Source: an uncultured Caulobacterales bacterium (GTDB lineage Bacteria > Pseudomonadota > Alphaproteobacteria > Caulobacterales > CAYPOX01). Taken from it: a stretch of 50,611 nucleotides of DNA. Shown in pieces: positions 25,314 to 46,952 of this stretch. The notes under the pieces are model-generated. The model was not told where the DNA came from. It worked only from the letters and a program-made list of their open reading frames with translations, and made no database searches. Where the stretch lies: NCBI GenBank assembly GCA_964412525.1, contig CAYPOX010000005.1:1-50611 (forward strand), in the 5' to 3' direction. The position numbers and the translations under genes were made by a program. The first letter of the stretch is position 1. Every line of letters begins with the position of its first letter.

Positions 25314-25323
25314 GACGGCCCCC

Positions 25324-26509: not shown

Positions 26510-26523
26510 CTTTAAGCTTGAAA
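26510..26523. promoter_or_regulatory. operator copy 1 (TTTTA-N4-TAAAA family)
   Basis: CTTTA-AGCT-TGAAA between the divergent cyclase/LLM and permease genes. Confidence 0.65.
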
Positions 26524-26552
26524 TAGATTCGCGCCGTGGCGAGCGTGTCTCT

Positions 26553-27863
26553 ATGACCGATCTTTCGACCGACCCGGCGACGCCCGCCGTCGCACGTCCC
26601 CGACGCCTCTGGAAAGCGCTGGGTCCTGGCATTCTGTTCGCGGGCGCAGCCGTCGGCGTGTCGCATTTGGTGCAGTCGACCCGGGCCGGAGCCGAATTCG
26701 GGTTGGCGCTCATCGGGTTCGTGATCATCGCCAATTTGATGAAGTACCCCGCGTTCCGCATCGGCAACCAATACGCCGCGGCCACCGGCCATAATCTGTT
26801 GATCGCCTATAAGAAGCAGGGGCGGCTCGCGTTGGGGCTGTTCGTGGCGGTGACGCTCGCCACGATGTTCGTCGGCGCGGCGGCGGTCTCGATCACCGTG
26901 TCCGCCCTCGCGGTGGCCACCTTCAACCCGCCCTTTGGCGTGCTCACGGCGACCTTGATCCAATGGAGCGCGATCATCGCGCTGCTCTATTTCGGGCGTT
27001 TCAAAGCTCTGGACACGATCGTGAAAGCGCTTTTGAGCTTTCTGACCGTCAGCACGGTGATCGCCACGATCCTCGTCTTTCCGATGCTGGAGGTGTCCGG
27101 CTTCGGCGACTTTTGGCCGGCGCATTTTGATCGGGCGACCCTCCTTTTCATCGCCGCCTTGGTGGGATGGATGCCGGCGCCGCTGGACACCTCGGTCTGG
27201 CAGTCTCTTTGGAGCCAGGCGAAAACCGGATCCGACGGTGTGGCGGCCACGATGGAGGAGACCGCCTTCGATTATAATGTGGGCTTTGTGGGCACGGCCG
27301 TCCTCGCCTGTTGCTTTGTGGTGATGGGCGCCGGCGTGATGCACGGGACCGGCGAGAGCTTCGCTGGCGGCGCGGCCGGCTTCGCCGCCCAAGTCATCAG
27401 CCTCTATGAGCGCGCATTGGGGCCGACGGTCGCCACATTGGTGGGCATGGCGGCGATGGCGGTCGTATTCTCCACGGCTTTGACGGCGATCGACGCCTGG
27501 CCGCGCACCCTCGCCGGGATCGCGCTGGTGATCCAACGCGGCGAAGACGCGGAGCGAGACCACACCATCAGTCACGCGATCGGTCATCCCTACTATTGGA
27601 TCGGCATGGCGGTGTTACTGGCCGGCGCCTTCGGCATCCTCGCCTTCATGATGGGCGATTTCAGCGCCCTCGTGGACGTCGCGACGACCATCTCCTTTCT
27701 TTCAGCGCCGATTTTCGCGTGGATGAATCACCGCGCCATGTTCGGCGAGGGCTTGGGGGATCACGGCCTGGGCGGCGGCTTGAAGCTGTGGAGCTTGCTG
27801 GGCGTGATCGGATTAGGGTCGTTCGCTCTGTTCTTCCTCGTCGCCCGGTTCGCGCTGGGTTGA
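26553..27863 (+). CDS. Nramp-like (APC superfamily) permease
   Basis: GPGILFAGAAVGVSHLVQSTRAGA and GWMPAP motifs; about 11 hydrophobic segments. Confidence 0.8.
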   Translation: MTDLSTDPATPAVARPRRLWKALGPGILFAGAAVGVSHLVQSTRAGAEFGLALIGFVIIANLMKYPAFRIGNQYAAATGHNLLIAYKKQGRLALGLFVAVTLATMFVGAAAVSITVSALAVATFNPPFGVLTATLIQWSAIIALLYFGRFKALDTIVKALLSFLTVSTVIATILVFPMLEVSGFGDFWPAHFDRATLLFIAALVGWMPAPLDTSVWQSLWSQAKTGSDGVAATMEETAFDYNVGFVGTAVLACCFVVMGAGVMHGTGESFAGGAAGFAAQVISLYERALGPTVATLVGMAAMAVVFSTALTAIDAWPRTLAGIALVIQRGEDAERDHTISHAIGHPYYWIGMAVLLAGAFGILAFMMGDFSALVDVATTISFLSAPIFAWMNHRAMFGEGLGDHGLGGGLKLWSLLGVIGLGSFALFFLVARFALG

Positions 27864-27923
27864 TCTCGCCGCCACGCCCGCGCTCGCATTGGCTGCGACG
27901 CATGCCTGCCCAGCCTTACAGGC

Positions 27924-29474
27924 TCAAATCGCCTTGAGAACTTCGTCCGCCGTCCGTGCCGCCAACGCATAGGCGGTGAATGTAGGGTTCGCCGCGCCCG
28001 CGGTCGGAAAAAGCCCCGGGCCGGCGATGATCAGATTTTCGTGGTCGTGCGTACGGCCAAAGGAGTCGCAGACGGAGGCGGCCGGATCGTCGCCCATGAT
28101 CGTCCCGCCCATCATATGGGCGTGGCCGACGGGTCCGAACCAAACCTCCTCGGCCCCGGCGGCCTGCATCACCCGTTCGCCCTCCTGACGCGCCAACTCC
28201 CGAAGCGCGAGGGTGTTCTCGTCAAACCGGTGCGTGATCTTCGCCGTACGCGCCCCGTCCGGCCCCTCCACGTCAGAGAGCTCGATGCGGCTTTCCCGAC
28301 GCGGCAACTCCTCCGCCATGTTCAACATATTGGCGAGGTGGTGGACCGCGCGGTCCATGAAGGCGTGGAGCGCCGGCCCAAACAGGTCTGCCCGGCTTGT
28401 TGCGACCCCGGCCAAGTCGTTCGGCTTGATGGCCGGCGCGATCAGCCATTGGTGGCTGCCGAACGGTCCTCCGTCGCCGCGGTCCTTGGGATAGCCCGCA
28501 TGGCTCATCAAATGGGCGCCGGAGACGCCGAAGAAATTGTCCGTGCGGTCGGGGAACATGCCGAAGGTCGGCGTAAGCGCATGGGCCATGAAATAGGCGC
28601 CGAGGAGCCCGCTGCGATTGGCGAGGCCGTTCGGATGATCAGCGTCCGCGGAGTTGAGCAGAATGACCGGGTTATGAACGACCGACGCCGCCAGAATCAC
28701 CGTGTCGGCGCGCAAGGTGCGGATCCGGCCCTCCGAATCCCCATAGCGCAGGGATGTGATCCGTCCCCTCTCGGCGACCAGTTTGGAGACATAGGCGCGC
28801 GTGCGAAACTCCGCGCCGGCCGCTTTTGCGCGCGGAATGTCCTCCACCAACGGATTCCAAAGCGCGTTGATCGGGCAGCCGGCGTCGCACCACCCGTCAT
28901 AGATGCAGGGCGCGCGGCCCTTATAGGGCTCGGTCAAGATCGCCATCGGCGCCGGAAACGTCGGAATGCCGAGCGCATCAAAGCCGCGCTTCAGGACAGT
29001 CGCCTGAGTCAGCGGCGGCACCGGCCGTAACGGATAGGGATCTCCGGGCGGACGCAAGGTTTCGATCGTCGCGTCGCCGCTGACGCCAACCTCCGCTTGG
29101 ATGCGGTCATAGAACGGGCGAAGATCCCCATAATCGATCGGCCAATCCAATCCGCGCCCATAAGTCGACCGGACCTTGAAGTCCGACTCCCTTAAGCGCG
29201 GCCAGGTCCCATAATGGTGCAAGGCCGCGCCGCCCAACCCCCATCCCCCATTGAAGCCGTAGCCATAGGGCCGGTCGCCGGCCGCAATCACCGGCGGACC
29301 GCCCCATCGCAAGCGGCGAGACCAGATCTGGCTGGAGACCAGATCTTCCATCTCCCAAGCGGGACCAGCCTCGAGAACCGTGACGGCTTTTCCGGCCTCG
29401 GCGAATCGGCGAGCCAGATACGCGCCGGTCGCGCCCGCGCCCACGATCGCGACCTCGGTCTCCTTCCTCACCAT
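27924..29474 (-). CDS. GMC family FAD oxidoreductase, large subunit
   Basis: IVGAGATG, LGGAALHH, CIYDGWCDAGCP Fe-S-type motif, HMMGGTIMG, ANPTFT. Confidence 0.92.
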   Translation of the reverse strand: MVRKETEVAIVGAGATGAYLARRFAEAGKAVTVLEAGPAWEMEDLVSSQIWSRRLRWGGPPVIAAGDRPYGYGFNGGWGLGGAALHHYGTWPRLRESDFKVRSTYGRGLDWPIDYGDLRPFYDRIQAEVGVSGDATIETLRPPGDPYPLRPVPPLTQATVLKRGFDALGIPTFPAPMAILTEPYKGRAPCIYDGWCDAGCPINALWNPLVEDIPRAKAAGAEFRTRAYVSKLVAERGRITSLRYGDSEGRIRTLRADTVILAASVVHNPVILLNSADADHPNGLANRSGLLGAYFMAHALTPTFGMFPDRTDNFFGVSGAHLMSHAGYPKDRGDGGPFGSHQWLIAPAIKPNDLAGVATSRADLFGPALHAFMDRAVHHLANMLNMAEELPRRESRIELSDVEGPDGARTAKITHRFDENTLALRELARQEGERVMQAAGAEEVWFGPVGHAHMMGGTIMGDDPAASVCDSFGRTHDHENLIIAGPGLFPTAGAANPTFTAYALAARTADEVLKAI

Positions 29475-30049
29475 GGTTTGGGCGGATCGATATGATGCAT
29501 GCGTTCGACCTGGAGCCGGTCAAAGCCTTCCGGAGATCCGTAATAGACGTCGACCGCGTCGCTGCGCGCGACAAAGTAGAACAACGGCGCCGGCGGACCG
29601 GCCCAACCCTCCGGCTGCGCCGCGGCGATGGCGCCGATCAGGGAGGCCGCGTCGGCGTCCGACGTCTCGGTGAAGGGCCGTCCGAAACGCATGGCCGCGA
29701 GCTGGTCCAAACCTGCAGCCCCATCACGGTAAAACGACGCCGCGTCGCCCGGCCAATCCATGTAACGGAGTATGGAAAGATTGGCCTCGCGGGGGCCGGC
29801 CGAGACCGCGTCAATGAAATGGGTGAAGCCGGCCGCCGTGGCCCCGGGAACCAGGACGTCGCCCAGACGATCCAGAACCCGGACCGTGTCCGGAGCCAGC
29901 ACGCGAAAGGCCGCGCCCGCCGCGCGGGCCTCTTCCGGCGTCAAGCGCTCCGCGCAACCGCCGACGAGATAGACGAAGAGCGCGCCCGCGCCCCCGACGA
30001 TCTGCCGTCGATGGGGCGCGCAGCTTTTCGCGGCCATGGATCGGCTCAA
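29468..30049 (-). CDS. gluconate 2-dehydrogenase subunit 3-like small subunit with Tat signal
   Basis: RRQIV twin-arginine, hydrophobic stretch ending LVGGC, LVPGATAAGFTHFID, YYGSPEGF; TTG start overlaps the receptor stop (alternative ATG 30037). Confidence 0.85.
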   Translation of the reverse strand: MSRSMAAKSCAPHRRQIVGGAGALFVYLVGGCAERLTPEEARAAGAAFRVLAPDTVRVLDRLGDVLVPGATAAGFTHFIDAVSAGPREANLSILRYMDWPGDAASFYRDGAAGLDQLAAMRFGRPFTETSDADAASLIGAIAAAQPEGWAGPPAPLFYFVARSDAVDVYYGSPEGFDRLQVERMHHIDPPKPW

Positions 30050-32598
30050 TATTGGAACCGAAGCTGGAGTTGATAGGTCCGCGGCGGCTGGAAGGAGATT
30101 TCGTTGCTGCCGCTGTTGGTGGCCAAGTCAAAACCCTGCACGCCGATGCGCTCATCCGCGATGTTGTTGACCGCAAACGCAACCTGGTAGCGGTTGCCGT
30201 CGCTGGCCCACCCCAGGCGGGCGTTCACAAGCACGTAAGAATCGAACAGATCCGCATCGAAGTTACGAAGATTGTAGAAGTATTCGTCGGAATAGGAGAT
30301 GACGCCGAGCGCAGAGGCGTAACCGCCGAACATGGGCCACTCATAGCGAATGAGACCGTTCGCCTGAAACTCCGGCGCGTAGACCGGATCGACGTCGCTG
30401 ACCGGTGCGCCATCTCCGATCCGTAGAGGCACGTCTTCGACGGTGGCGTCGAAATAGGCGAAGCCCGCCGCAAGATCGAGGCCTTCAATCGGCGTCGCCT
30501 GGATCTCCCATTCGGTTCCGATCGTGTTCGCGTCGGCGTTGACGACGAAGCCCGCCACGCCGGTGAAAAGGAACGCCTGATAGTCCGTGTAGTCGTAGTA
30601 GAAGATGTTGCCGTTGAGGCGCATCTTCCCGTTGAACCAGTCCGACTTGAAGCCGCCTTCAAAAGATAGGAGGGCCTCGCGGTCATAGGGGATGAATTCC
30701 GCGACATTCGCCACGGGGGCGCCGCCGGCGAGTTGGGCGTTGTAGCTCGGCGCTTTCACGCCGCGATTGACGCCCGCATAGAAGAGAAGGTTGTCCGTCG
30801 GCGTGTAGTCCAATTGCACCTTACCCGACCAAAGCGTGTCGTTACGCTCGTCGGTGAAGTCCTGCGGCACGCCGTTCTCGTCAAAGATCGGGCCGATCTG
30901 GAACGGGGTCCCAACGCCGAACTGACGCGAGTCGACGGTGTTGTAGATGTTTTGTGCGAACACATAATCCTTGTTCTCGAACACGACCCGCACGCCGCCG
31001 ATCAAAGTGAGATTGGAGAGCACGGACTGTTCGATTTGCCCGAACAAGGAAAACGAATTGGTTTTCAATGTGGCGTCCGATTGCAAGTCGAACGGAGCGC
31101 CGGGCACCACCGAGCCGACCGGAAATTTCAGTCCGTTCGCCGACGTGGTGTCAATGTTCAAATAGAAGAGGCCGGCCGTCCAATTTCGCGTTGGACCGTC
31201 GCCGGCGATCCGCAATTCCTGGGTGATGCTGCGCGAGTCCACGCCCGCAAAGTTCGCGGACACGTTGGCGGGCCCGGCGTCGACATCGATGAAAAGCTCT
31301 TTGAAGTAGTCTTTGTAGTCGCCGATATAGAAGATGGTCAGGTTGTCAGACAGCTCATAGGTGGCGCGCGCCGAGCCGCCGAGCGTGCGAACCCGACCGA
31401 TGTCGTCAAAAGCGAAGTCGCTCGAGAAGGTGAAGTCTTCACCGTCCGGATCGCGATAACCGAAGAAATCGCCGCCTGGCGCCGCTCGGCCGATCGGCCC
31501 GTCGGCCGGCGTTCCGAACACGCCGTCATTGTCGGCGTCCCCGCCGAGATCAATCCCTGCCGGACCAATGGACGTGCGGCTTTCATTCGGCGCCACGTCG
31601 ATGACGTTGATGAGCTCAAGATTTCCTTCGAACTGGGTCGAGGTGAGAATGCCTTCCGGATTCTCCTCAAACACGCCGATCGTCGGTTTGGCTTGATAGG
31701 GACCAACGCTGAGCTCCGATCGCGCGCCGTTGAAGGCGAAGCCGAACTCCAATCGATCCGTCGCTTTGTAGGCGATCTGAAAACGACCGGCGATGGTGTC
31801 GTCGTCGCCCAAATCCGCCCCGGCGTCCGGTCCCGGCGCATCGCCGAACGGCGCTTGGATAAGGCCGGCGTCCGCGAGCCCAAAGGTGGCGCCGCCAATG
31901 GCGCCCTCCGGATATCGGTTTTGCAGAAGCGGCTCTTGATAATCGTAGAGAACCGAGGCCCGGAACGCCAAGTTTTCAGAGATCGGACCGCCGATCGCGG
32001 CTTCGGTGCGGATCTGATAGGCGTCGGCTTCGGTCGCGAACCGGCTCGCTTGGATGTCGACATAGCCTTCATAGCCGTCGAAGCTGGGTTTGTTGGTGAT
32101 GTATTGGACCGCGCCGCCGGTGGCGTTACGGCCGAACAGCGTGCCCTGCGGACCCTTCAGATTTTCGACGCGGTCAATGTCGAACACGCCGAAGGTTTGG
32201 GCCTGGGCCACGGCCACATAGGTGTCGTCCACATACACCGCGATCGGAGCTTCCACGATGTCGTTGAAATCGTTTTGCGCGACGCCGCGGATGGTGAACT
32301 GGGTGTTTTGGCCGGCCAAGTTGCCCGAAATGTGGACGCCTGGCGTGAAGGAGGCCACATCGAAGCTGGTTTCGACGCCCAACTGGTCAAGCTGGGTCCC
32401 GGTGAAGGTCTGGATCGCGATCCCGACATCCTGTTCGCTCTGTTCACGCCGCTGCGCCGTGACCTGGATTTCCTCGATCACGCTGGTCTGAGCGAAAGCG
32501 GGCGTCGACGCGGCGAACCCCGTGACCAACGCCGCCAAAGATGCGCCGCCGCAGAGAACCGCGCGCGGCGGCCTCCGAATGCATTTCACGTGCAACAT
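30046..32598 (-). CDS. TonB-dependent receptor
   Basis: Signal peptide AFA-Q, EEIQVTAQRREQSEQDV, DIDRVENLKGPQGTLFGRNATGGAV, C-terminal FQY. Confidence 0.93.
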   Translation of the reverse strand: MLHVKCIRRPPRAVLCGGASLAALVTGFAASTPAFAQTSVIEEIQVTAQRREQSEQDVGIAIQTFTGTQLDQLGVETSFDVASFTPGVHISGNLAGQNTQFTIRGVAQNDFNDIVEAPIAVYVDDTYVAVAQAQTFGVFDIDRVENLKGPQGTLFGRNATGGAVQYITNKPSFDGYEGYVDIQASRFATEADAYQIRTEAAIGGPISENLAFRASVLYDYQEPLLQNRYPEGAIGGATFGLADAGLIQAPFGDAPGPDAGADLGDDDTIAGRFQIAYKATDRLEFGFAFNGARSELSVGPYQAKPTIGVFEENPEGILTSTQFEGNLELINVIDVAPNESRTSIGPAGIDLGGDADNDGVFGTPADGPIGRAAPGGDFFGYRDPDGEDFTFSSDFAFDDIGRVRTLGGSARATYELSDNLTIFYIGDYKDYFKELFIDVDAGPANVSANFAGVDSRSITQELRIAGDGPTRNWTAGLFYLNIDTTSANGLKFPVGSVVPGAPFDLQSDATLKTNSFSLFGQIEQSVLSNLTLIGGVRVVFENKDYVFAQNIYNTVDSRQFGVGTPFQIGPIFDENGVPQDFTDERNDTLWSGKVQLDYTPTDNLLFYAGVNRGVKAPSYNAQLAGGAPVANVAEFIPYDREALLSFEGGFKSDWFNGKMRLNGNIFYYDYTDYQAFLFTGVAGFVVNADANTIGTEWEIQATPIEGLDLAAGFAYFDATVEDVPLRIGDGAPVSDVDPVYAPEFQANGLIRYEWPMFGGYASALGVISYSDEYFYNLRNFDADLFDSYVLVNARLGWASDGNRYQVAFAVNNIADERIGVQGFDLATNSGSNEISFQPPRTYQLQLRFQY

Positions 32599-32635
32599 GC
32601 CCCCGTCTCCCCTCGTTTCGGCCCCACCGAAAAAA

Positions 32636-32649
32636 TTTTAGGCTTAAAA
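32636..32649. promoter_or_regulatory. operator copy 2
   Basis: TTTTA-GGCT-TAAAA with perfect arms, abutting the -10 of the receptor promoter. Confidence 0.75.
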
Positions 32650-32678
32650 GATTAGGATTCGAATTTTCCCGATGTCAA
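32649..32678 (-). promoter_or_regulatory. sigma70-type promoter of the TonB receptor-GMC operon
   Basis: Minus strand TTGACA-N18-TAATCT. Confidence 0.65.
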
Positions 32679-33220
32679 TTCGAACTGGGCTTCGAGTCGG
32701 GCGTCGGCGGCGACTGGTGATCAGGCTCAAACGCTTCGTGACCCAGATTGTCGCCCACGCGACGCAGCAAGGCGTTGAGGGTCTCCACGTCCTGTCCGGA
32801 CAACCCCCGGACGGCGACCAAAAACAGCGACGACGCAGCGGCTTGGACGCGTTCTAAGCGTTGCCGACCACGCGGGGTCAAACAGACTTCCGTGACGCGC
32901 GCATCGCTTTCCCGACGGCGACAAACCACGTTCCCTTCCGCCTGCATGCGCTGGACGACGCGCGTGATCGTCGAGAGCTTCATCACGGCCAGCTCCGCGA
33001 TTTCGCTGACGCTGGCCGGATCGCGCTCATTGAGGATCATCAGTGCGCGCCAGGTGGGTCGGTCGACGCCCACTTGGGCGAGGGCGTTCAGCAACGTTGC
33101 GTTGTACCGTTCCGCCGCGCGGTTCATCAGGAAAAACGGATAGTCGTTCAGACGAAACCTTGGCTCATCCGGGGTCGCACGCCGAATGGCGTCGCTGATC
33201 TCGTCATCTCCTGAGGTCAT
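32675..33220 (-). CDS. MarR family regulator, IacR/IadR-like
   Basis: FRLNDYPFFLM..WRALMILNE..SVSEIAELAVMKLSTITRVVQRM..DARVTEV; resembles my recollection of the indole-3-acetate regulator IacR. Confidence 0.85.
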   Translation of the reverse strand: MTSGDDEISDAIRRATPDEPRFRLNDYPFFLMNRAAERYNATLLNALAQVGVDRPTWRALMILNERDPASVSEIAELAVMKLSTITRVVQRMQAEGNVVCRRRESDARVTEVCLTPRGRQRLERVQAAASSLFLVAVRGLSGQDVETLNALLRRVGDNLGHEAFEPDHQSPPTPDSKPSSN

Positions 33221-33241: not shown

Positions 33242-33253
33242 AATCACGTGATT
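33242..33253. promoter_or_regulatory. perfect palindrome AATCACGTGATT between marR and iorA
   Basis: 12-bp palindrome preceded by TAGTTGCA in an 88-bp divergent gap. Confidence 0.45.
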
Positions 33254-33308
33254 TCAGTAGCGTTCCATGAAATTTCCGGCACGTAAATCCGAGAAATGGG
33301 GGCGCGGC

Positions 33309-35435
33309 ATGGCCGAACGTTCGTTCGCCAAGGAGGTGCAAAAGCTGCGGGCGGGAGCCGGCGCGACCTTTGAAGGCGAGGGCATTTTGGCGGTCGCCAA
33401 AGCGCTCTTGCAGTCCGGCGTTTCTTATGTCGGCGGTTATCAGGGCTCCCCGATCTCCCATTTGATGGACGTGTTTTCGGACGCCAATCCGATCCTGACG
33501 GAATTGGGCGTCCACTTTGAAGCGAGCGCCTCCGAGGCGACGGCGGCCGCGATGTTGGCGGCGTCGGTGAACTATCCCCTGCGCGGCGCGGTCACATGGA
33601 AGTCCACGGTCGGCACGAATGTGGCGTCGGATGCGCTCGCAAATGTGGCGTCCGGCGGCGTTACAGGCGGCGCACTCGTCATCGTCGGCGAGGATTACGG
33701 CGAAGGCTCCTCGATCATGCAGGAGCGAAGCCACGCCTTCGCGATGAAGTCGCAGATGTGGCTTCTCGATCCGCGCCCCAATCTGACCAGCATTGTGGAG
33801 TCGGTGGAGACCGGGTTCGAGCTTTCCGAGGCGTCAAGCACGCCGGTCATGCTCGAACTCCGCATCCGCGCCTGCCACATGACCGGACGTTTCGAAGCCA
33901 AAGACAATGTCCGCCCCGCCTTCGGCTTGAAGGACGCGCTGGACGGACCGGTTCGGGACACCAACCGGATCGTTTTGCCGCCGGCGAATTTCCTGCACGA
34001 GGCGGAGAAGATCGAACGTCGCTGGCCGGCTGCGATCGATTTCATTCGATCTCGCAAGCTCAATGAGCTTTTCGGTCCCAAAGACGGCGAGGTGGGCCTG
34101 ATCATCCAAGGCGGCCTCTACAACACCGTCATGCGTGCGCTTGAACTGCTCGGTTTCGCAGACGCTTTCGGCGAGTCGCGCATTCCCGTCTTATGCCTGA
34201 ACGTGACCTACCCATTGGTCGAAGATGAGATCGTGACGTTCTGCCAAGGCAAGAAGGCCGTGTTGATGGTCGAAGAAGGCCAACCGGAATTCATCGAACA
34301 GGCGGTCAACACGAACTTGCGCCGCGCAGACGTGCAAACCCCCGTCGATGGAAAAAACCGTCTGCCCCGCGCCGGAGAATATACGGGGGACGTGTTGCGC
34401 AACGGCTTGCGCGCGTTTTTCGACGCGCACGAGGTGGCGTCGCCATTGAGCGTCGCCGCTCCCGAACCGATCGCCGATCTGAAATCGGTGGTTCCTCCAA
34501 GACCTGCCGGTTTTTGCACGGGCTGTCCGGAGCGCCCGATCTTCACGGCTATGAAACTGGTCGAGCGGGAGCTTGGGCCCAGCCATGTCTCCTGCGACAT
34601 TGGTTGCCATCTTTTCTCGATTCTGCCGCCTTTCGAAATCGGCAACACCACGATGGGCTACGGACTCGGGGCCGCCGGCGCCTCCGCGTTCAAGTCCGAG
34701 GGCGGGAAGCGCGCGATCGCCGTCATGGGCGACGGCGGTTTTTGGCACAACGGCCTCACCAGCGGCGTCGGAAACGCCGTTTTCAATGAGAGCGACAATG
34801 TCCTTCTCATCGTGGACAACGGCTATTCGGCGGCCACCGGCGGGCAGGACATTCTCTCTTCGCGCAAGCCCAATCCCGTGCGCTCGACGCGCCATCGGAT
34901 CGAAAAGGCCGCGCGCGGCGTGGGCGTGAAGTGGCTCCGGACGGTCAAAACCTATGATCTGAAGCGCATGACCAAAGCGCTCAAAGACGCGCTCACCACC
35001 GCGCAAAAGGGGCCGAAGGTCATCGTCGCCTATTCGGAATGCATGTTGAATCGGCAGCGCCGGGAGAAGCCGCTGCTCAAACAGGCGATCAAAGAGGGCA
35101 AACGCGTGGTGCAAGAGCGCTACGGCGTCGATGACGACACCTGCACGGGCGACCACTCATGCATCCGGCTTTCCGGCTGCCCGTCGCTGAGCATCAAAGA
35201 CAATCCGGACCCGCTCCGCGACGAACCGATCGCCCATGTCGAGCAGTCCTGCGTGGGCTGCGGCCATTGCGGGGAGGTGGCCCACGCCGCGGTTCTCTGC
35301 CCGTCCTTTTATCGCGCGCAGATCGTCCATAACCCCACCCAAGTGGATCGACGCCTCGACCGTTTCCGCGCCACGATCATCGGCGCGCTGCAAGCACGCG
35401 CCGACCGCGCCCGCGCGCGCCGGGCGGCGGTCTGA
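33309..35435 (+). CDS. iorA: indolepyruvate:ferredoxin oxidoreductase-family alpha subunit
   Basis: GYQGSP, FCTGCPERP, CDIGCH, TPP motif GDGGFWH..DN, C-terminal ferredoxin Cys motifs; start MAERSF. Confidence 0.92.
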   Translation: MAERSFAKEVQKLRAGAGATFEGEGILAVAKALLQSGVSYVGGYQGSPISHLMDVFSDANPILTELGVHFEASASEATAAAMLAASVNYPLRGAVTWKSTVGTNVASDALANVASGGVTGGALVIVGEDYGEGSSIMQERSHAFAMKSQMWLLDPRPNLTSIVESVETGFELSEASSTPVMLELRIRACHMTGRFEAKDNVRPAFGLKDALDGPVRDTNRIVLPPANFLHEAEKIERRWPAAIDFIRSRKLNELFGPKDGEVGLIIQGGLYNTVMRALELLGFADAFGESRIPVLCLNVTYPLVEDEIVTFCQGKKAVLMVEEGQPEFIEQAVNTNLRRADVQTPVDGKNRLPRAGEYTGDVLRNGLRAFFDAHEVASPLSVAAPEPIADLKSVVPPRPAGFCTGCPERPIFTAMKLVERELGPSHVSCDIGCHLFSILPPFEIGNTTMGYGLGAAGASAFKSEGGKRAIAVMGDGGFWHNGLTSGVGNAVFNESDNVLLIVDNGYSAATGGQDILSSRKPNPVRSTRHRIEKAARGVGVKWLRTVKTYDLKRMTKALKDALTTAQKGPKVIVAYSECMLNRQRREKPLLKQAIKEGKRVVQERYGVDDDTCTGDHSCIRLSGCPSLSIKDNPDPLRDEPIAHVEQSCVGCGHCGEVAHAAVLCPSFYRAQIVHNPTQVDRRLDRFRATIIGALQARADRARARRAAV

Positions 35436-35437
35436 TC

Positions 35438-36928: not shown

Positions 36929-36930
36929 CG

Positions 36931-38136: not shown

Positions 38137-38528
38137 GTCCGGGCCAACAAGCGCGCGCGATAAGACGTCGAGAACCAAGCGCCGTTGAACTTTTCAAGGA
38201 CATAGAAGCACCGAACGCGCCATCCTGAGAACGACGTGAATTCGATGTCGACTTCCGCCCGCACGCCTTCGACGACGACATTGTAAACGTGCACGTGATC
38301 GTGCTTCGCGAAGCCTGCCGTTGACGGCTTCATCCATTGCAGCAGTTCGATATGACCTTTCTTGGAGACCGTGATCTGAATCTCACCCATATCGATGTAA
38401 TTCACGCTGTGGTCCGCCATGCGGTCGATGCCGGCGTAGCGTTCGCCGCGACCGAACCGATCAAGGATATCGCGAAGCACCGCCACCGCTTCGGCTTCAA
38501 TTGCTGCTTGGCTTTGAGCCATGTCCAT
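38133..38528 (-). CDS. small hypothetical protein, possibly NTF2/lumazine-binding-like fold
   Basis: N-terminal helix, then strands ending RAEVDIEFTSFSGWRVRCFYVLEKFNGAWF; start at 38528 or 38522. Confidence 0.55.
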   Translation of the reverse strand: MDMAQSQAAIEAEAVAVLRDILDRFGRGERYAGIDRMADHSVNYIDMGEIQITVSKKGHIELLQWMKPSTAGFAKHDHVHVYNVVVEGVRAEVDIEFTSFSGWRVRCFYVLEKFNGAWFSTSYRARLLART

Positions 38529-38828
38529 ATCGCGCCACCGTCCGGACTGTGCCCACAACGCGTTCGATTTCGCGATCCGACGCGACGTGCCGACACGCCA
38601 AGGGCGTTTGAACCTATCATGTCCAATCCAGCGCCGTTTGCAAAGCCTCGAACGCTTTACAAACATTTTTAAAGGCTTTGAGGGCGACGAAGTGATTCAA
38701 TCAATCACGCATAGTGTGCGCTGGAGCGTGTTGAGCGCCACTCAACTTTTTTAAGCACAAGACGAAAAATCGCCCGCATATAGAGACCTTCGAACAAGGC
38801 CGGGGCCGAGATCACTGGTCCGCAGCTG

Positions 38829-39266
38829 TCATGGCGCCTTGGCGTCAAGCTCCGTCAAATATGGGCCCATGCGCGCGCGTGTGTCGTTCGGCCAGGGCGT
38901 CGGTTTGTGCCGAACTTTATCGATGTGAACGAGAACCAGGTCGGCGACGAAGCGCGTGGCGCCTTCGCCCACAGCTTCAAGACGCAGCCCGACCGACGCC
39001 CCACCGATCCGCGTCACGGCGAGGCTCACGTCCAGATCGTCGTACAAACGGCTCGGCGCTTGGAAATCGACCTCGATATGGGCGAGCGGCACGCCGCGCC
39101 CCTCCTCCAGGATCAACCGGCGCCAGTTTTGATCCAGCGCTTCCGCGAACCAGGCCTCCACCGTTTCGTTGATGATCTCGAAATAGCGCGGGTAGAAAAC
39201 GATCCCGGCTGGATCGCAGTCCGCGAAGAGAATGCGCCGCGCCCGTCGGAAAACGCGCCCGTTCAC
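38829..39266 (-). CDS. acyl-CoA thioesterase (4-hydroxybenzoyl-CoA thioesterase family)
   Basis: [19 protein letters not shown] hot-dog motif; GTG start overlapping the upstream stop. Confidence 0.92.
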
Positions 39267-40432
39267 GCGCCAAGCGCGGCGCGCGCGATCACCAGTTTCT
39301 GCACTTCAGAAGCGCCTTCATAGATGCGCAAGGCCCGAATCTCGCGATAAAGCGCCTCCACGGCGAAACCGCGTCGAACCCCGTCTCCGCCATGGAGCTG
39401 CACCGCCGCGTCAATGACGCGCTGCGCGGCCTCGGTCGCGTAGAGCTTGGCCATCGCCGCCTCGCGCGTGATCCGCGCTTGGCCCCGATCCTTCGCCCAG
39501 GCGGCGCGATAGATCAGGAGCGCGGAGGCGTCCACGTCGAGCGCCATATCCGCCAACTGGCTCTGCGCGACCGGAAGGTCCGCCAGAGTTCCACCGAAGA
39601 GGTGGCGCGACTTGGCCCGGCCAAGCGCCTCGTCCAAGGCCCGTCGCGCGAAGCCCAACGCGGCTGCGCCCACCGTCGGCCGAAAGATGTCGAGGGTGGC
39701 CATCGCGCATTTGAAGCCGCCGCCGGCGGTCCCCAATAAGTTTTCGATCGGAACGCGCACGTCGGTGAAGCGCAGCGTCGCAAGCGGATGGGGCGCCATC
39801 ACGTCGATCCGCTCCGCCACCTCCAGACCTGGCGAATTCGCATCAACGACGATTGCGCTGACGCCTTTCGCGCCAGGCGCTTCTCCGGTGCGCGCGAACA
39901 GGGTGTAGAACGACGCGATGCCGCCGTTCGAGATGTAGGTTTTGGCGCCGTTGATCACGAACTCGTCGCCCTCGCGCCGGGCCTCGGTCGTCATATTGGC
40001 GACGTCCGAGCCGGACTCGGGCTCCGTCAACGCGAATGCCGCCACTTTGGCGCCCGAACGAACCGCCGGCAGATAAACCGCCTTAATCTCGTCCGAGCCG
40101 AATTGGCTGATTGCGCCGGAGCCGAGGCCCTGCATGGCGAACACGAAATCGGCGAGGCCGTGGCGACGACCCAAATTTTCGCGGATCAGGCACAGCGAGC
40201 GGACATCAAGGCGCTCAAAGGCGCCGCCATAGGCGGCTGGCGTCACATATTCGAGCCACCCATCAGTGGCGAGCCGATCCAGAATGACGCCGCACGCCCC
40301 ATCGACGCCTTCGGCCTCCTCCAACTCGTGGACGTCGGCCAATTTACGCTCCGCCCATTCATCGATCGCGCGAGCCAGATCCCGATGGCGATCTTCAAAG
40401 AAAGGCCAGTCTAAAAACGACTCGTCAACCAT
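39263..40432 (-). CDS. acyl-CoA dehydrogenase (abm-cluster type)
   Basis: [42 protein letters not shown]. Confidence 0.93.
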
Positions 40433-40435
40433 GGC

Positions 40436-41248
40436 TCAATCTCCTTGAAAGATGGGCTTTTCTTTCGCCACGAAGGCGCGATAGGCGCGCTCGAAATCCT
40501 TGGTCTGCATGCAAATCGCCTGGGCCTGCGCTTCCGCCTCGATCGCGGCTTCCAGGCTCATCGCCCACTCCATGTGGAGGGCGTTCTTGGTCATGCCGTT
40601 GGCGAATGCGGGTCCGCGGGCGATCGCTTCGGCGAGGGCGTGCGCCTCGTCCAAAAGCGCGTCGGCCGCGATCAGGCGATTGTAGAATCCCCAGCGTTCG
40701 CCTTCCTCGGCGCTCATGAAGCGCCCGGTGTAAAGAAGCTCCGACGCGCGCCCTTGACCGATGATGCGGGGCAGGACGGCGCACGCGCCCATATCGCAAC
40801 CCGCGAGACCGACACGATTGAACAGGAACGCGGTCTTCGCGGCGGGCGTCGCGAGCCTCAAATCGGACGCCATCGCCATGATCGCACCCGCCCCGGCGCA
40901 TATTCCATCCACCGCCGCCACGATCGGTTGCGGACAGGCGCGCATCGCTTTCACGAGATCGCCGGTCATGCGCGTGAAGTCGACCAGCTCCGGCATGTCC
41001 ATCGCCACCAGGGGACCGATGATCTCATGCACGTCTCCGCCGGACGAGAAATCGCCGCCGGCTCCGGACACGACCAGGGCCTTGACCTCTTTCCGGTAGA
41101 CCAGCGCGCGGAACCAGTCCCGCAACTCGGCGTAGGACTCGAAGGTCAGCGGGTTCTTTTTCTCCGGACGGTTCAGGGTAATCCGTCCGACGCCGTCCGC
41201 GAAGGACCAGTTGAAATGCTCGGGGCGAAACGTGCGCGCGTCGGTCAT
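40436..41248 (-). CDS. enoyl-CoA hydratase family protein (abm-cluster type)
   Basis: [42 protein letters not shown]. Confidence 0.93.
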
Positions 41249-41745
41249 GCGGCTTCCCGCTCGGCCTTATCCATGGCGTCGACCTCGTCCCGCACGACGC
41301 CTAGGGCGTCGGCCAACCGCGCCAGACCCGATTGGCTCAGGCTCGAAAAAACGTCGGTGATCCACTCTTCATGGGCCATCGCCATTTCGTCGAAGACCGC
41401 GCGCCCGGATTCGGTGAGACGCACGCGCACGCTGCGGCGGTCCTTCGGGTCCACTTCGCGTGTCAGATGGCCGTCTTCGGCGAGCCGGTTCACCAGGCCG
41501 GTGACGTTGCCGTTCGACACCAAGAGCCGCCGTGACAGCGCGCTCATGGTCATCGGTTCGTCGGATCGGCTCAGCGCCGCCAACACGTCGAAACGCGGCA
41601 AGGTCGTGCCGAACTGCTCTTGCAGCTGCGTTTGCAATCGCTTCTCGATCAGCGTCGTGCAAGCCAGCATTTTCAGCCAGGTCTTGAGACTATCCTTGCC
41701 GCGTCCCCTTTGAAGTTCGATCGCACGCTCGAACGTTCCGCTCAT
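41245..41745 (-). CDS. MarR family regulator of the abm-type operon
   Basis: [41 protein letters not shown]; ATG overlaps the SDR stop. Confidence 0.92.
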
Positions 41746-42500
41746 GTCACCTCTCCGCCTGCGACGGCGATCGCTTGGCCGGTCACGCCCCGCGCCTGAT
41801 CGCCGCATAACCACAACACCGTATCGGCGACTTCTTCGGGCGCGATCAAGCGGCCCTGGGGATTGTGGCGGGTGAACTCTTCGAGAGCGGCGTCGCGGTC
41901 GCGCCCGGTCATGGCGGTGACGGCGTCGAGCGCATCAGCCACGAGGTCGGTGTCGGTGAAGCCCGGACACACCGCATTGAAGGTGATCCCGCCCGCCGCC
42001 CGCTCGGCCGCGAGCGCGCGCATCAAACCGATCGCGCCATGCTTCGCGGCGCAATAGGCCGCGCAATAGGCGTAACCTTTGAGGCCGGCGGTCGAAGCAA
42101 CCGTGATGACGCGCCCATAGGCTTGGGGATGCATACGCCGCAGCGCTTCGCGCGCGCACAAAAATGGCCCGGTCAGATTCACCGCCGTCATTCTGTCAAA
42201 GAGATCGATGTCCGTTTTGGCGAACGGCGCGGTCTCGGCTGCGCCGGCGTTGTTCACCAGGATCGCGATCGGAGCGCGTTCATGCGCCGCCTCGAAGGCC
42301 TCTATCACGCTCGCCTCGTCGGTGACGTCGCAGGCGATGGCGGAACCGTCGCGTAGGCTGGCCGCCACCGCCTGAAGCGGCTCAAGGCGACGCCCCATCA
42401 CCGTCACGCAGGCGCCGGCCCGGTCGAGAGCACGGGCGGTTGCGGCCCCGATGCCGGAACCGCCGCCGGTCACAACGGCATGACGTCCCGCCAGATTCAC
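41742..42500 (-). CDS. SDR oxidoreductase (3-hydroxyacyl-CoA dehydrogenase-like, abm-cluster type)
   Basis: [29 protein letters not shown]. Confidence 0.93.
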
Positions 42501-44797
42501 GCGCGCATCGCCTCCGCTTCGGCTGCGGCGCGCGCCATATTGCGCTTCAGCTGGCTGAATCCATTGAGATAGGGCGGCGGCACGGCGACGCCGTCATACT
42601 GCATTTGCGCCGCCGCGCGGATTGACCAAGACGGATCGACCAAATGCGGCCGCGCAAGCGCGACCAAATCCGCGCGACCCGCCGCCAAGATCGAATTGGC
42701 GTGATCCACTTCATAAATGTTGCCCACGGCCATGGTGGCGCATCCAAGCGAATTGCGGATCTGGTCGGAGAAGGGCGTTTGGAACATTCGCCCATAGACC
42801 GGCTTGGCGTCCCTTGTGGTCTGTCCCGCCGACACGTCGATCAAATCCGCCCCGGCCGACTTGAAGGCGCGCGCGATCTCCGTCGCCTCCTCCGGCGTCA
42901 CTCCAGCGTCGCCGACCCAATCGGTCGCGGAAATGCGCACGGACATCGGTTTCTCATCCGGCCAAACATCGCGCATCGCATGGAACACCTCGAGCGGATA
43001 GCGCAGCCGGTTTTCGAGCGACCCGCCATATTCGTCCGTGCGCGTGTTCTGCACCGGCGTCAGAAAGGCGGACAGGAGATAGCCATGGGCGCAGTGCAGC
43101 TCGACCATGTCGAAACCTGCCTGTTGGGCCATGTCCGTCGCGCGCACGAACTGGTCGCGCACCTCATCCATGTCCGCTCGGGTCATCGGGCGGGGCGTCT
43201 TGTTCTCAGGCGACCACGCCACGTCGGACGGAGCGATCAGATCCCAGCCGCCGCTCTCCAGCGGTTCGTCCATGCCCTCCCAACCGATCTTGGTGGCGCC
43301 CTTGGCGCCGGCATGGCCCAATTGAAGACAGATCTTCGCATTCGATCTCGCATGGACGAAATCGACGACCCGCCGCCAGGCGTCGACATGGTCCGGCGCA
43401 TACATGCCCGTACAGCCAGGGGTGATGCGCGCGGTCGGCGACACGCAGGTCATCTCCGTAAAGACCAGGCCCGCCCCGCCCATGGCCCGAGAACCGTAGT
43501 GGACCAGGTGAAAATCGTCGGGGGTCCCGTCGGTCGCGCTGTAGGTCGCCATCGGCGACACGACCACGCGATTCTCCAGCGTCATGGCGCGCAGATGGAA
43601 CGGCGTGAACATGGGCGGCGTCGGCGTATTGGCGGCGCGGCCGGTCGCTTCCTCCGCGTACCAATTCTCCACCTCGCGAAGCCAACCTGCATCGCGCAGC
43701 CGCAAGTTTTCATGGCTGATCCGTTGGCTGCGCGTGAGGAGCGAGTAGGCGAACTGCATCGGCGCGAATTGGAGATAGCGCTCGACATTCTCGAACCACT
43801 CGGTCGAGTTTCGCGCGGCGTTCTGAATCTTCAGGACTTCGACGCTGCGCTCGTCCTCATAGCTTTGCAAACGGTCGTCCAAGGGCAGGTCGGCGGCCGC
43901 CAGATGCTCGGAAAGGGAGATCGCATCCTCAAGCGCGAGCTTGGTGCCCGAGCCGATCGAGAAGTGCGCCGTATGAGCGGCGTCGCCGAGCAGGACGACA
44001 TTGCCGCGCCGCCAACGGTCGCAAAGGATGCGCGGAAAGTTCAGCCACGCTGATGACCGCAAATGGCGGGCGTTCGAAATCAACTCATGCCCGCCCAAAT
44101 GATCGGCGAAGATGCGCTCCAGGGTCCGGCAGGATTCGTCCTGGGTCATGTCGCCGAAGCCCCACTTCTCCCAGGTCTCCGGCGAACACTCGCAGATGAA
44201 GGTCGCGGTGTCGGCGTCGAATTTATAGGCGTGCGCCCAGATCCAACCGTGTTCCGTCTCTTCGAAGATGAAGGTGAATGCGTCGAACTTCTGTTGGGTG
44301 CCTAGCCATACGAACTTGTTCCGGCGCACGTCTCGGTCGACGCCGAAATCCTCTTCGTGGAGCGACCGGATCTTGCTGTTCACTCCGTCGGAGGCGACGA
44401 CGAGATCGTAGCCCTCAAACTGGTCCAAATTCGGCTCCAACTCGACCTCGAAACGCAGATCGACGTCGAGCTCCCGCGCCCGGTCCTGCAAAATGTTCAA
44501 CAGGCGTTTCCGGCCGATGCCGCAAAAACCGTGTCCGGACGAGCGAACCCGCGCACCGTTCACGACCACTTCCACATCGTCCCAATGGGCGAACTCTTCG
44601 AGAATGGCCCGCGCGCTTTTCGGGTCTTTGTCCTCCAGATGATCCATCGTTTGGTCGGAGAACACGACGCCCCACCCAAAGGTGTCGCCGGGGCGATTGC
44701 GTTCGAACACCGTCACCTCATGGGACGGGTCCTGAAGCTTCATGAGATTGGCGAAATAGAGCCCGGCGGGTCCCCCGCCCACGCATGCGATCCTCAT
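42497..44797 (-). CDS. abmA: bifunctional 2-aminobenzoyl-CoA monooxygenase/reductase (salicylyl-CoA 5-hydroxylase family)
   Basis: N-terminal FAD monooxygenase ([36 protein letters not shown]) fused to an OYE domain ([25 protein letters not shown]); AGGAGG RBS. Confidence 0.93.
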
Positions 44798-44816
44798 GTC
44801 TGCCTCCTATCCTCGA

Positions 44817-44838
44817 ATTATTTTAAGTATAAAATAAT
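44817..44838. promoter_or_regulatory. operator copy 3 (strongest)
   Basis: ATTATTTTA-AGTA-TAAAATAAT, perfect 9-bp arms, 20 nt upstream of the abmA start, overlapping -10-like hexamers. Confidence 0.85.
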
Positions 44839-44867
44839 GACCCCGTCCATGGAGGCCCGCCGCCGCG

Positions 44868-46892
44868 TCACTGCGACGCGCGTTCGTTGAGCCAAGGGGG
44901 CGGCGTCCACCAACGCGGCCCGAAACGATCGGCATAGGCGGCGACGGCGCGTTTGGTCTCCGCCCATCCCCGCGCCTCGGCCTGAAACATCGGGCCGCCC
45001 TTGGCGCGGGGGAAGCCATAGCCATGGACCAAAACGACATCGACATCTTCGGGCGATCGGGCGACGCCGTCCTGGAGGACGCCCGCCGCCTCGACCGTCA
45101 TGGCCAACAGACATCGTTCCACGATCTCGTCGTCGTCGAGCAGCCGCGGCGGCGCGTTTTGGCGGTCGGCTTCCGCAGCGATGATGTCGAGCGCCGCCTC
45201 ATGGCGGGACGCGGCCGCACCCTCATGGCGATAGAAACCGGCGCCGACTTTCCGGCCCAGCATGCCCGCGGCGACCAAGGCGTCGTGCACGTGAAAAGCG
45301 CGCGGTTCAAAATCGGCTTCATCGCGCGCCTCCCGCATCGCGTGGCCGATGTCGAGCCCCGCGAGGTCCAGGGCTTGGAAAGGTCCCATGGGCAGGCCAA
45401 AGGCGCGCATCGCCGCGTCGATCGGCTCCGGATCGCGGGTTTCTAAAAGCATGAGTCCGGCCTCGCGCTGATAGCCTTGCCAGATTCGGTTCCCAATAAA
45501 GCCCCAGCCGACTCCGCTGATCACCGGGATCTTTCTCAGCGCTTTCGCGAAGGCGAGGCCCGTGGCCAGCGTGTCCGGATGGGTCGCGGCGCCGTCAACC
45601 ACCTCCACCAACCGCATGACGTGCGCCGGATTGAAAAAATGCAGTCCGATCACATCTTGCGGACGCCCCGAGGCCGCGGCGATCGCATCCACGTCGAGAT
45701 AGGACGTGTTCGTGGCGAGCACGGCGTCGTCTTTGATGATGCGGCTCAATTCCTCAAACAGAAGGCGCTTGGCGTCCATACGCTCGACGATCGCCTCGAC
45801 CACGAGATCGGCGTTTGATGCGGCGCGAAGGTCCGATGCGGCGGAGAGTCGTTGCAGGGCGTCCGCCGCCGTCCCGGAGAGGCGGCCCTTCGCCGCGTCC
45901 CGCTGCAGGATGCTCTCGATCGCATCGCGCGCCGCGGTCCGCGCGCCTTGATCCACATCGCACAGCACCACCTGTCGACCGGCGCGCAGCGCGGCGGCGG
46001 CGATGCCGCGCCCCATGGCTCCGGCCCCCACGACGGCGACCACATTGACCCCGCGCGCCGCGCCTTTGCGATCCTCAGTCGGCTTCCCAGAGGCGCGTTC
46101 TGCGAAAAACATCCGGCGCAGCGCGCGCGCTTCCGGCGAAGCCTTCAAATCGAGGAAGCGCCGCCGCTCCTCTTTCAAACCGGCCTCAAGACCGTGCGCC
46201 ACGCCGTAATCGACCGCATCGACCGCGGCGGAACGCGCGGGCTCCAGCGGATAGCGGGCGGCGATCTCCGTCTTCAGCGAGGCGAGATCCTCACGGTTCA
46301 AGCAGACTTCAGGGCGTGCGGCGGGCGGCGTCATCGCGAGCGCGCAGGCGGCGTCCAGCAATTCCTCTTGGCGAACCACCGCGTCGATCACGCCGAGGCG
46401 CGCGCCGGCGCCGGCGTCGACAGTTTCGGCGTGGGCGATCATACGGGCGGCCTGGGCCGCGCCGATCATGCGCGGCAAGCGCTGCGTCCCTCCGGCCCCT
46501 GGGATCAGTCCGAGCGTGGTCTCCGGAAGCCCGATCACGCAACCGATCGCCGCCGCACGCGATCGGCAGGCCAGCGCCACCTCCAACCCGCCGCCGAGCA
46601 CGGCGCCATGCATCGCCGCAACCACAGGAATCGGGAAATCGGCGATCCGCGCGCAAAGATCCGTAAGGATTGGATCTTCCGGCGGCTTGTCGAATTCGCG
46701 AATGTCCGCACCCGAAAAGAACGTCTTGCCGCGACAGGCGAGCACGACGCCGCGAGCCGTAGCGTCCGCCTCAATAGCGTCCAGCGCCTCAGCCACGCCG
46801 CGCCGGACGTCGATTGACAAAGCGTTGACCGGCGGGTGGTCGATCCAGATGATCCGAACCGTGTCACGGTTTTCAATGGTGATCGTGGTCAA
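44868..46892 (-). CDS. bifunctional enoyl-CoA hydratase / 3-hydroxyacyl-CoA dehydrogenase (FadB/PimF-like)
   Basis: [48 protein letters not shown]; probable TTG start after GGAGGA (alternative ATG 46910). Confidence 0.92.
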
Positions 46893-46938
46893 GTGAGGTC
46901 CTCCGCCCATGCGTCGGGATAACGCTTGCCCAAAAATG

Positions 46939-46952
46939 TTTGAAGCCTAAAA
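46939..46952. promoter_or_regulatory. operator copy 4
   Basis: TTTGA-AGCC-TAAAA(TAAT) within TTGCCC-N16-TAAAAT, between the divergent fadB-like and gcdH genes. Confidence 0.7.

Follow-up and report, generated by a model that had tools for sequence, protein, structure and literature searches.

MarR-family repressors with palindromic operators are textbook, and several of them, including CouR (Rhodococcus jostii, Rhodopseudomonas palustris), FerC/FerR and HcaR, repress the CoA-dependent catabolism of aromatic acids. For aerobic 2-aminobenzoate metabolism, the abm clusters of Azoarcus evansii reportedly encode an AbmA-type monooxygenase/reductase followed by beta-oxidation-like enzymes; to our knowledge no operator is known for these clusters, and none was found in the full-text literature either. 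Here we analyzed a contig of 50,611 nucleotides (hereafter, the window; contig C5) from an uncultured Caulobacterales bacterium (GCA_964412525.1; 2,816,387 bp in 243 contigs, 64% GC), in which a 14-bp palindrome occurs at the promoter of an abm operon and at three neighboring promoter regions. We consider it likely that this palindrome is the operator of MarR2, the MarR-family regulator encoded inside the abm operon (41245-41745, minus strand), and that it joins four promoter regions and six transcription units in one regulon. A full-text literature search, with subscription journals and regulon databases outside its scope, found no description of this operator or regulon; the regulator-operator pair appears undescribed so far, and a MarR repressor with a palindromic operator is a known kind of system.

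The locus resembles the CouR, FerC and HcaR systems in having a MarR gene in or beside a catabolic operon with aryl-CoA intermediates and a palindromic operator at the promoter, with release by an intermediate expected. It differs in that MarR2 is distant from 5cyv and 3fm5 (E ~8e-5), which we take to be CouR, in the operator sequence, and in a regulon that would extend to a TonB-dependent receptor and a periplasmic-type GMC dehydrogenase pair. MarR2 has the winged helix-turn-helix domains of the family (PF12802, 55.9 bits against a cut-off of 27; PF01047, 42.1 bits against 24.6) and matches 67 solved MarR-family chains, the best being an uncharacterized structural-genomics protein (3boq, E 1.4e-21); it passed no specific NCBIfam model and has no close paralog in the window genome. 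As in Azoarcus evansii, an AbmA-type bifunctional enzyme is encoded together with beta-oxidation-like enzymes. AbmA (42497-44797, minus strand; 766 aa; PF01494 and PF00724) has the composition of a bifunctional FAD monooxygenase/OYE-type reductase of ~770 aa and scored 1296 bits against NF006101 (cut-off 1078), a model named for salicylyl-CoA 5-hydroxylase. Unlike the Azoarcus clusters, the locus (24201-48619) encodes this enzyme for a CoA thioester yet no aryl-CoA ligase: none of the 33 window proteins scanned with Pfam contained the AMP-binding domain of the anthranilate-CoA ligase that belongs to the abm pathway, and genes for an IorAB-type 2-oxoacid oxidoreductase, which may supply the thioester directly, are present instead.

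A second regulator of the locus, MarR1 (32675-33220, minus strand), relates to another described group. Its best solved relatives are 7kua (E 1.2e-26), 7l19 and 7kfo (E 2.1e-12), which we take to be auxin-binding MarR structures, 7kfo presumably being the Variovorax MarR_73. MarR1 is in this sense a homolog of IacR and IadR (MarR_73), the auxin-catabolism repressors that bind between the regulator and catabolic genes and are freed by an indole-derived ligand; loci with two MarRs are described there too (PMC9613470). The window differs from those systems in that its palindrome tracks MarR2, not the IacR-like MarR1, and in that its genes are of abm and IorAB type, not iac or iad.

The four sites lie where the earlier note on this DNA had placed them. 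S1 (CTTTAAGCTTGAAA, 26510-26523) occupies the divergent region between a cyclase-luciferase-like monooxygenase (LLM) unit and a gene for an Nramp-like permease, 29 nucleotides (nt) from the permease ATG (26553) and 88 nt from the cyclase ATG (26421, minus strand). S2 (TTTTAGGCTTAAAA, 32636-32649) stands 37 nt ahead of the ATG of the TonB-dependent receptor gene (32598, minus strand). S3 (ATTATTTTAAGTATAAAATAAT, 44817-44838) is a 22-bp palindrome with 9-bp arms, built around a 14-bp core (TTTTAAGTATAAAA, 44821-44834), and lies 23 nt ahead of the ATG of abmA (44797, minus strand), the first gene of the marR2-containing operon. S4 (TTTGAAGCCTAAAA, 46939-46952) lies in the 74-bp divergent region between the genes for a FadB-like protein and acyl-CoA dehydrogenase 2 (ACAD2), 28 nt from the FadB-like ATG (46910, minus strand) and 32 nt from the ACAD2 ATG (46985), to which the ACAD2 start was reassigned from TTG 46940. 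Every site is thus 23-37 nt from at least one start codon, and all four are single copies. Read in one orientation their spacers are AGCT, AGCC, AGTA and AGCC, as previously claimed, and the open reading frame (ORF) listing and Pfam scan place all four between genes. The gene map likewise agrees with the proposed layout of one operator at four promoters serving six units: cyclase-LLM; permease; receptor-Glcn2DH3-GMC; abmA-SDR-marR2-ECH-ACAD1-4HBT; the FadB-like gene; and ACAD2-RidA. The claim that three sites overlap -10-like hexamers stood in part. By eye, S2 (minus strand), S3 (minus strand) and S4 (plus strand) terminate in TAAAAT facing the downstream gene, but a consensus promoter scan returned full -35/-10 matches at two of the four only, TGGACG-18-TAAAAT overlapping S3 and TTGCCC-16-TAAAAT overlapping S4.

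Words of this kind are rare in the genome, as the earlier note had supposed for AT-rich words in GC-rich DNA. TTTTA-N4-TAAAA occurs twice in the whole assembly, both times in the window, and the looser TTTNA-N4-TNAAA occurs 20 times, four of them in the window contig (three of the sites and a word at 5740, inside the coding region of the first upstream TonB-dependent receptor gene). The pattern YTTNANNNNTNAAA gave nine strand matches (five places) in the window against a mean of 0.88 (sd 1.03) in 100 dinucleotide shuffles of the window, none of which reached nine. A matrix made from the four sites ranks those sites first trivially; we therefore rely on an independent matrix trained on 30 distinct sites from other genomes only. 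In the genome-wide scan that had been suggested as a check, this matrix ranked S2 first (25.5), S3 second (25.4), S1 fourth (23.8) and S4 seventh (21.2). The idea that the best copy precedes the regulator's own operon did not quite hold, S2 and S3 being nearly equal. Only ten words in the 2.8-Mb assembly scored at least 18. The six that are not sites comprise five within coding regions (C4:31407, C100:8909, C92:6438, C4:3702 and C9:1595) and C21:6183, which lies inside a 47-49% GC island; all six were taken as chance matches. The island itself, at ~5500-6500 of contig C21 in a genome of 64% GC, carries weak motif-like words (5971, 6183) that are probably compositional chance matches in foreign DNA.

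The earlier note had named a motif common in unrelated intergenic regions genome-wide as a point that could undo the proposal. Counts of the bare pattern do not distinguish it from background. Among the matches listed for five genomes scanned, TTTNANNNNTNAAA was found at 100 and 45 places in lower-GC genomes and was too noisy to use, and a tighter pattern occurred at 3-8 places per genome in the five genomes versus 2-7 for a reversed-pattern control. The pattern alone shows no genome-wide enrichment; only its placement at abm loci stands out.

That placement is conserved upstream of abmA. A survey of 40 other genomes of the order gave AbmA orthologs in 11. Two of these (G012 and G007) have the operon abmA-SDR-MarR2-ECH-ACAD1...4HBT-RidA, a gene order also seen in many named loci, and both carry the motif ~28 nt ahead of abmA, as TTTTAGGCTTAAAA in G012 and TTTTAAACTTAAAG in G007. 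The G012 site is identical letter for letter to S2, and TTTNANNNNTNAAA occurs at three places in the G012 genome, one of which is the abmA site. Two genomes with an operon that lacks MarR2 (G004 and G034) had no such word ahead of abmA. For a wider comparison, an AbmA alignment retrieved 80 loci from named genome records, whose titles point to Sphingomonadales, Hyphomicrobiales/Rhizobiales, Rhodobacterales, Caulobacterales/Maricaulis, Bradyrhizobium, a few Gammaproteobacteria, Eremiobacterota and others. We assessed the 71 loci that reached the AbmA N-terminus and a further 200 nt or more upstream of it, dropping the other nine, and called a site where a word scored at least 14 on the window-derived matrix within 250 nt upstream of abmA. 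Loci without MarR2 were counted only if they extended at least 3.5 kb past abmA, which left out 12 shorter ones, four of which (L069, L085, L093 and L097) carry the motif.

On these terms the motif preceded abmA in 29 of 38 loci with a MarR2 ortholog in view versus 3 of 21 without. The three exceptions (L071, L077 and L091) each proved to encode a MarR2 ortholog (40-47% identity, E no worse than 3e-34) within the operon or elsewhere in the genome; that of L071 is part of the operon, and that of L077 lies ~1.5 kb outside the retrieved locus, while two motif-negative controls (L029 and L023) had no MarR2 ortholog in the whole genome. With the exceptions resolved, the scan of orthologous promoters, a further check put forward in the earlier note, found the motif in 32 of 41 MarR2-positive and in none of 18 MarR2-negative loci. 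In seven of the nine MarR2-positive loci counted as misses, the best word has this shape but falls below the threshold (scores 9.9-13.1). Presence, rarity, position, conservation and co-occurrence with MarR2 are direct observations on the motif. No regulator other than MarR2 accompanies the site; MarR2 does so from inside the operon, in loci of at least five orders of Alphaproteobacteria and in two of Gammaproteobacteria. S3 represents a palindrome in the 14-20 bp range at the regulator's own operon promoter, and the same placement recurs in 35 other loci.

A de novo count that used no matrix gave the same palindrome. We counted all exact 4-mer inverted dyads with spacers of 0-8 in the upstream regions of the 41 MarR2-positive and 18 MarR2-negative loci. 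The most frequent were ATTT-N8-AAAT (14 positive vs 0 negative), TTTA-N4-TAAA (12 vs 1) and TTTC-N6-GAAA (10 vs 0), followed by TTCA-N4-TGAA (10 vs 0), TCAA-N2-TTGA (8 vs 0) and GAAA-TTTC (8 vs 0). All of these top dyads are registers of an A-TTTCAAGCTTGAAA-T palindrome or of the junction between tandem copies, and no other palindrome was enriched. The family consensus is TTTCAAGCTTGAAA with an A...T pair directly outside it. Among the 35 loci with a strong abmA site, the distance from the site to the annotated abmA ATG ranged from 5 to 109 nt, and 18 loci had tandem sites 14-15 bp apart, that is, two abutting palindromes (e.g., L022 6913-6940, L054, L055, L061, L067, L072 and L077). As a separate observation, S1, S2, S4 and many sites elsewhere are preceded by a GAAAA-type run that resembles a further, third half-site.

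The genes found beside sites in other lineages, either behind extra sites or divergent from abmA across the abmA site, are related in kind to those of the window. Across 1.06 Mb of the 80 loci, the independent matrix found 56 words of at least 17, of which 46 were upstream of abmA and 10 were intergenic in the same clusters. ACAD2-like dehydrogenases lie beside sites in L025 and L051, a FadB-like gene next to a divergent MarR2 in L037, a 3-hydroxyacyl-CoA dehydrogenase in L052 and enoyl-CoA hydratases in L079 and L089. An LLM ortholog (64% identity) in L052 has a site ~30 nt ahead of its ATG. A tryptophan 2,3-dioxygenase gene adjoins a site in a Maricaulis metagenome-assembled genome (L057), and alpha/beta-hydrolases (L054, L059, L061, L082 and L084 by Pfam, L055 by position only), aminotransferases (L022, L074), RidA (L025) and SDR genes (L097, L099) occupy similar positions. 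By gene content, this set matches S4 (FadB-like gene and ACAD2) and half of S1 (the LLM unit), and it links the regulon to tryptophan and kynurenine breakdown.

Metagenome contigs provided a comparison for the remaining genes. Relatives of the window's cyclase-family protein with 57-67% identity were found on 80 metagenome contigs, and many of these share a module in which IorB-IorA is divergent from a sodium:solute symporter (PF00474)-cyclase-TonB-dependent receptor-Glcn2DH3-like-GMC oxidoreductase series. AbmA sometimes adjoins the IorBA/symporter module; contigs with the module include L126, L130, L167, L175 and L181. Judged from its genes, the module looks like a catabolic island for an unnamed substrate that feeds an aryl-CoA pathway. 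Its conservation in the contigs means that neighborhood alone already ties the cyclase, receptor and GMC genes to IorAB and AbmA. In 550 kb of cyclase contigs, the independent matrix found 18 words of at least 17, of which 16 lie between called or matched genes (ten contigs were gene-mapped, and placements in L150, L152, L166 and L194 came from tblastn coordinates); the other two lie inside an ACAD coding region (L154:7580) and past the last callable gene (L183:7649). Ten of the words fall in the divergent region between IorA and the transporter; they come from nine of the 12 contigs in which IorA is divergent, L181 having two, one of which is identical to S3. The divergent region between an Nramp-like gene and the cyclase has a site in three of the four contigs with that arrangement, and 3 of the 18 words are upstream of an acyl-CoA dehydrogenase gene. 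In the window, the module is split into separate units, each with its own site, which would be the outcome expected from selection for co-regulation. The earlier proposal that the cyclase/LLM, permease and receptor/GMC genes belong with the aminobenzoyl-CoA pathway is supported by these placements, since the motif elsewhere precedes LLM, Nramp/cyclase and IorAB/transporter-cyclase-receptor-Glcn2DH3-GMC units.

Several observations weigh against a MarR2 regulon of this extent. Two MarR2-positive loci (L047 and L076) have no motif-like word upstream of abmA. The counts of 32 of 41 against none of 18 ignore kinship, and because the genomes are related and some contigs are near-duplicates (L166/L167 and L154/L165), they overstate independence. 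The training sites of the independent matrix were chosen with the window-derived matrix, which leaves the dyad count as the sole fully unbiased check. Orthologous sites are mostly tandem (18 of 35 loci), as opposed to the four single sites in the window. Among site-bearing metagenome contigs, only L175 shows a MarR2 gene, beside IorB, in the part fetched. Further points concern S1 and S2: the promoter scan gave no -35/-10 match at either; no cyclase ortholog (E 1e-40 or better) was found in 300 other genomes of the order; and in G012 and G007, relatives of the same order that have MarR2, the motif occurs at abmA only, with no extra sites. The genomes compared include no other member of the window organism's family. 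As a result, S1, S2 and S4 lack a footprint in close relatives, and S1 and S2 can be compared only with distant metagenome contigs. Finally, because AbmA passes a salicylyl-CoA 5-hydroxylase model, its substrate could be either 2-aminobenzoyl-CoA or salicylyl-CoA.

The least improbable alternative is that MarR2 works through S3 and perhaps S4 only, with S1 and S2 as chance AT-rich palindromes or weak decoys, so that the cyclase/LLM, permease and receptor/GMC genes would stand outside the regulon. The confinement of the motif to abmA in G012 and G007, the missing close-relative footprint and the empty promoter scan at S1 and S2 all fit this alternative. We nevertheless consider it unlikely, because S2 and S1 rank first and fourth genome-wide, above S4; because S2 is identical to the abmA operator of G012; because, by our own estimate, the chance that three of the other nine words of at least 18 fall in the 20.4-kb span is ~3e-5; and because the motif precedes LLM, permease/cyclase and transporter-cyclase-receptor-GMC units in other lineages. 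A contig of run X5 that covers 26380-32720 differs from the window by 79 letters and 3 gaps in 6341 bases, and among the differences listed none falls within S1, the closest (26526 G>A) being 3 nt outside; a divergence of ~1.2% predicts only 0.2 changes per 14-bp site, so an unchanged S1 carries no weight here.

Quite improbable, in our assessment, is that another transcription factor encoded elsewhere in the same genomes binds the motif while MarR2 recognizes something else. Co-occurrence is a correlation, related genomes share many genes, and most site-bearing metagenome contigs show no MarR2 in the part fetched, all of which leaves room for such a factor. Against it, no regulator gene but marR2 is carried along in the operon behind the site, all three apparent exceptions were resolved in favor of MarR2, and the dyad count showed no second palindrome enriched upstream. 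A palindrome of 14-16 bp also suits a MarR dimer. The comparison among genomes (32 of 41 versus none of 18) agrees with the suggestion that the words are repressor sites, probably for the abm MarR.

MarR1 is a still weaker candidate, and that the motif is its operator strikes us as very improbable. Two points speak for it: S2 lies 25 nt past the MarR1 stop codon, and the group to which MarR1 belongs is known to regulate indole-derivative catabolism. In tblastn searches, however, only two of the 80 AbmA loci yielded a match to MarR1, partial in both cases (L051 and L079, 36-37% identity); of the 80 cyclase contigs, two did (L144 and L180, 34%), and these have no motif match of at least 15. The 46-bp region between MarR1 and iorA contains a different element, a perfect 12-bp palindrome (AATCACGTGATT, 33242-33253) that is unique in the assembly, and no TTT motif; the other promoter regions of the window also lack the motif. 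A related word, GTGATT-N5-AATCAC (38692-38708), which has the AATCACGTGATT half-sites in opposite order and occurs twice in the assembly, lies upstream of the gene for a 177-aa protein. A search of 1.6 Mb of related loci found neither AATCACGTGATT nor GTGATT-N5-AATCAC. Between 26 and 47 kb, then, six intergenic regions bear promoters, four with the TTT palindrome and two with the AATCAC type. An operator of the IacR/IadR type would be expected to accompany its regulator; MarR1 is absent from nearly all motif loci and adjoins the other palindrome, which argues that MarR1 is probably not the binder of the TTT motif and that AATCACGTGATT may be its operator. From this arrangement, the locus seems to hold two MarR circuits, one of the auxin-MarR-like MarR1 and one of the abm-type MarR2.

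The explanation that no dedicated factor is involved, the words being AT-rich promoter elements (-10 or UP-like) or chance in AT-rich intergenic DNA, is barely credible: three sites do end in TAAAAT, and the DNA between genes is richer in AT than coding sequence, but the symmetry is kept while the distance to the abmA ATG varies over 5-109 nt, 18 of 35 loci have tandem copies spaced by 14-15 bp, none of the 18 loci without MarR2 has the motif at its abmA promoter, and other promoter regions of the window do not carry it.

For the preferred reading, a MarR2 regulon, we infer from these comparisons that MarR2 binds the motif and represses, that an effector exists, and that each individual site functions; the least secure of these are that S1 and S2 function in the window organism and which molecule is the effector. 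A MarR2 dimer would sit on each palindrome, contacting half-sites TTTYA and TRAAA with centers 9 bp apart, and would occlude the -10 region or transcription start at the four promoter regions. We propose a block of RNA polymerase because start codons lie 23-37 nt from the sites and, in three cases, the -10-like TAAAAT belongs to the site itself. As marR2 lies in the operon behind S3, MarR2 would repress itself through this site. An intermediate of the pathway would release MarR2, most likely 2-aminobenzoyl-CoA and otherwise anthranilate; we favor the thioester from the gene content of the regulon and by analogy with the MarRs of CoA-dependent aromatic pathways. Induction of uptake and peripheral genes by the intermediate would form a positive loop. 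The iorAB-thiolase genes would stand outside this control in the window, as they share the 46-bp region and its different palindrome with MarR1.

The RidA, tryptophan dioxygenase and aminotransferase genes of the regulon favor an amino compound as the substrate. We tentatively outline a ligase-free aerobic route into the 2-aminobenzoyl-CoA pathway from an indole- or tryptophan-derived compound, a chain that we regard as possible but doubtful when taken as a whole. The compound would be taken up by the TonB-dependent receptor, oxidized by the GMC/Glcn2DH3 pair and imported by the Nramp-like or SSF transporter. The cyclase-family hydrolase would then yield a 2-oxoacid such as isatinate, from which IorAB would form 2-aminobenzoyl-CoA directly. 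MarR2 would sense the thioester and switch on uptake, peripheral and central steps together, and the IacR-like MarR1 would separately gate IorAB. The route is compatible with the conserved IorBA/transporter-cyclase-receptor-Glcn2DH3-GMC/AbmA module of the metagenome contigs, which has the motif in its divergent promoter. The cyclase has one weak match among solved structures, the uncharacterized 5ibz (E 7.5e-12), which bears neither way on an isatin hydrolase or kynurenine formamidase assignment.

The conservation of the motif over several alphaproteobacterial orders and a few gammaproteobacteria makes it a ready means of locating the regulon across hundreds of genomes. Used as a label, the motif would tie a cyclase-family hydrolase, an LLM, an Nramp-like permease, a TonB-dependent receptor with a GMC pair and, elsewhere, IorAB to genes of aminobenzoyl-CoA and tryptophan/kynurenine metabolism, so that an ill-defined cluster becomes a pathway hypothesis open to testing. 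The window also presents a two-MarR layout, with an auxin-MarR-like and an abm-type regulator in one catabolic island.

The gene map, drawn from the ORF listing and Pfam scan, assigns the following positions. Downstream of S1 on the minus strand, the genes for the LLM (24201-25334) and the cyclase-family protein (25324-26421) form a unit (24201..26421), both identified by Pfam; on the plus strand, the Nramp-like permease gene (26553-27863) encodes a protein that passes PF01566 narrowly (30.0 bits, cut-off 29.8). The unit downstream of S2 (27924..32598, minus strand) comprises the Pfam-assigned GMC oxidoreductase (27924-29474), gluconate-2-dehydrogenase-subunit-3-like protein (Glcn2DH3; 29468-30049) and TonB-dependent receptor (30046-32598). 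IorA, IorB and the thiolase are encoded at 33267-38136 on the plus strand, and the 177-aa protein, of no known family, at 38133-38666 on the minus strand. The abm operon (38829..44797, minus strand; Pfam) contains abmA, an SDR gene, marR2 and the genes for enoyl-CoA hydratase (ECH), acyl-CoA dehydrogenase 1 (ACAD1) and a 4HBT thioesterase. Downstream of S4 are the gene for the FadB-like enoyl-CoA hydratase/3-hydroxyacyl-CoA dehydrogenase (44868-46910, minus strand; Pfam and NCBIfam) and, on the plus strand, those for ACAD2 (46985-48172) and, after it, RidA (48215-48619), both by Pfam.

Some further features adjoin these genes. In two metagenome contigs (L137 6803-8775 and L154 8312-10140), genes for the alpha and beta subunits of a Rieske ring-hydroxylating dioxygenase lie next to the ACAD/cyclase/Nramp-like group, and a strong motif site, scoring 25.0 in L137, separates the Rieske genes from the ACAD gene. 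In the window, an ORF of 3911 aa (12392-24127, minus strand) adjoins the LLM gene, and the region upstream of the locus (3919-12351) encodes two more TonB-dependent receptors, a phytase and a SLAC1-type anion channel.

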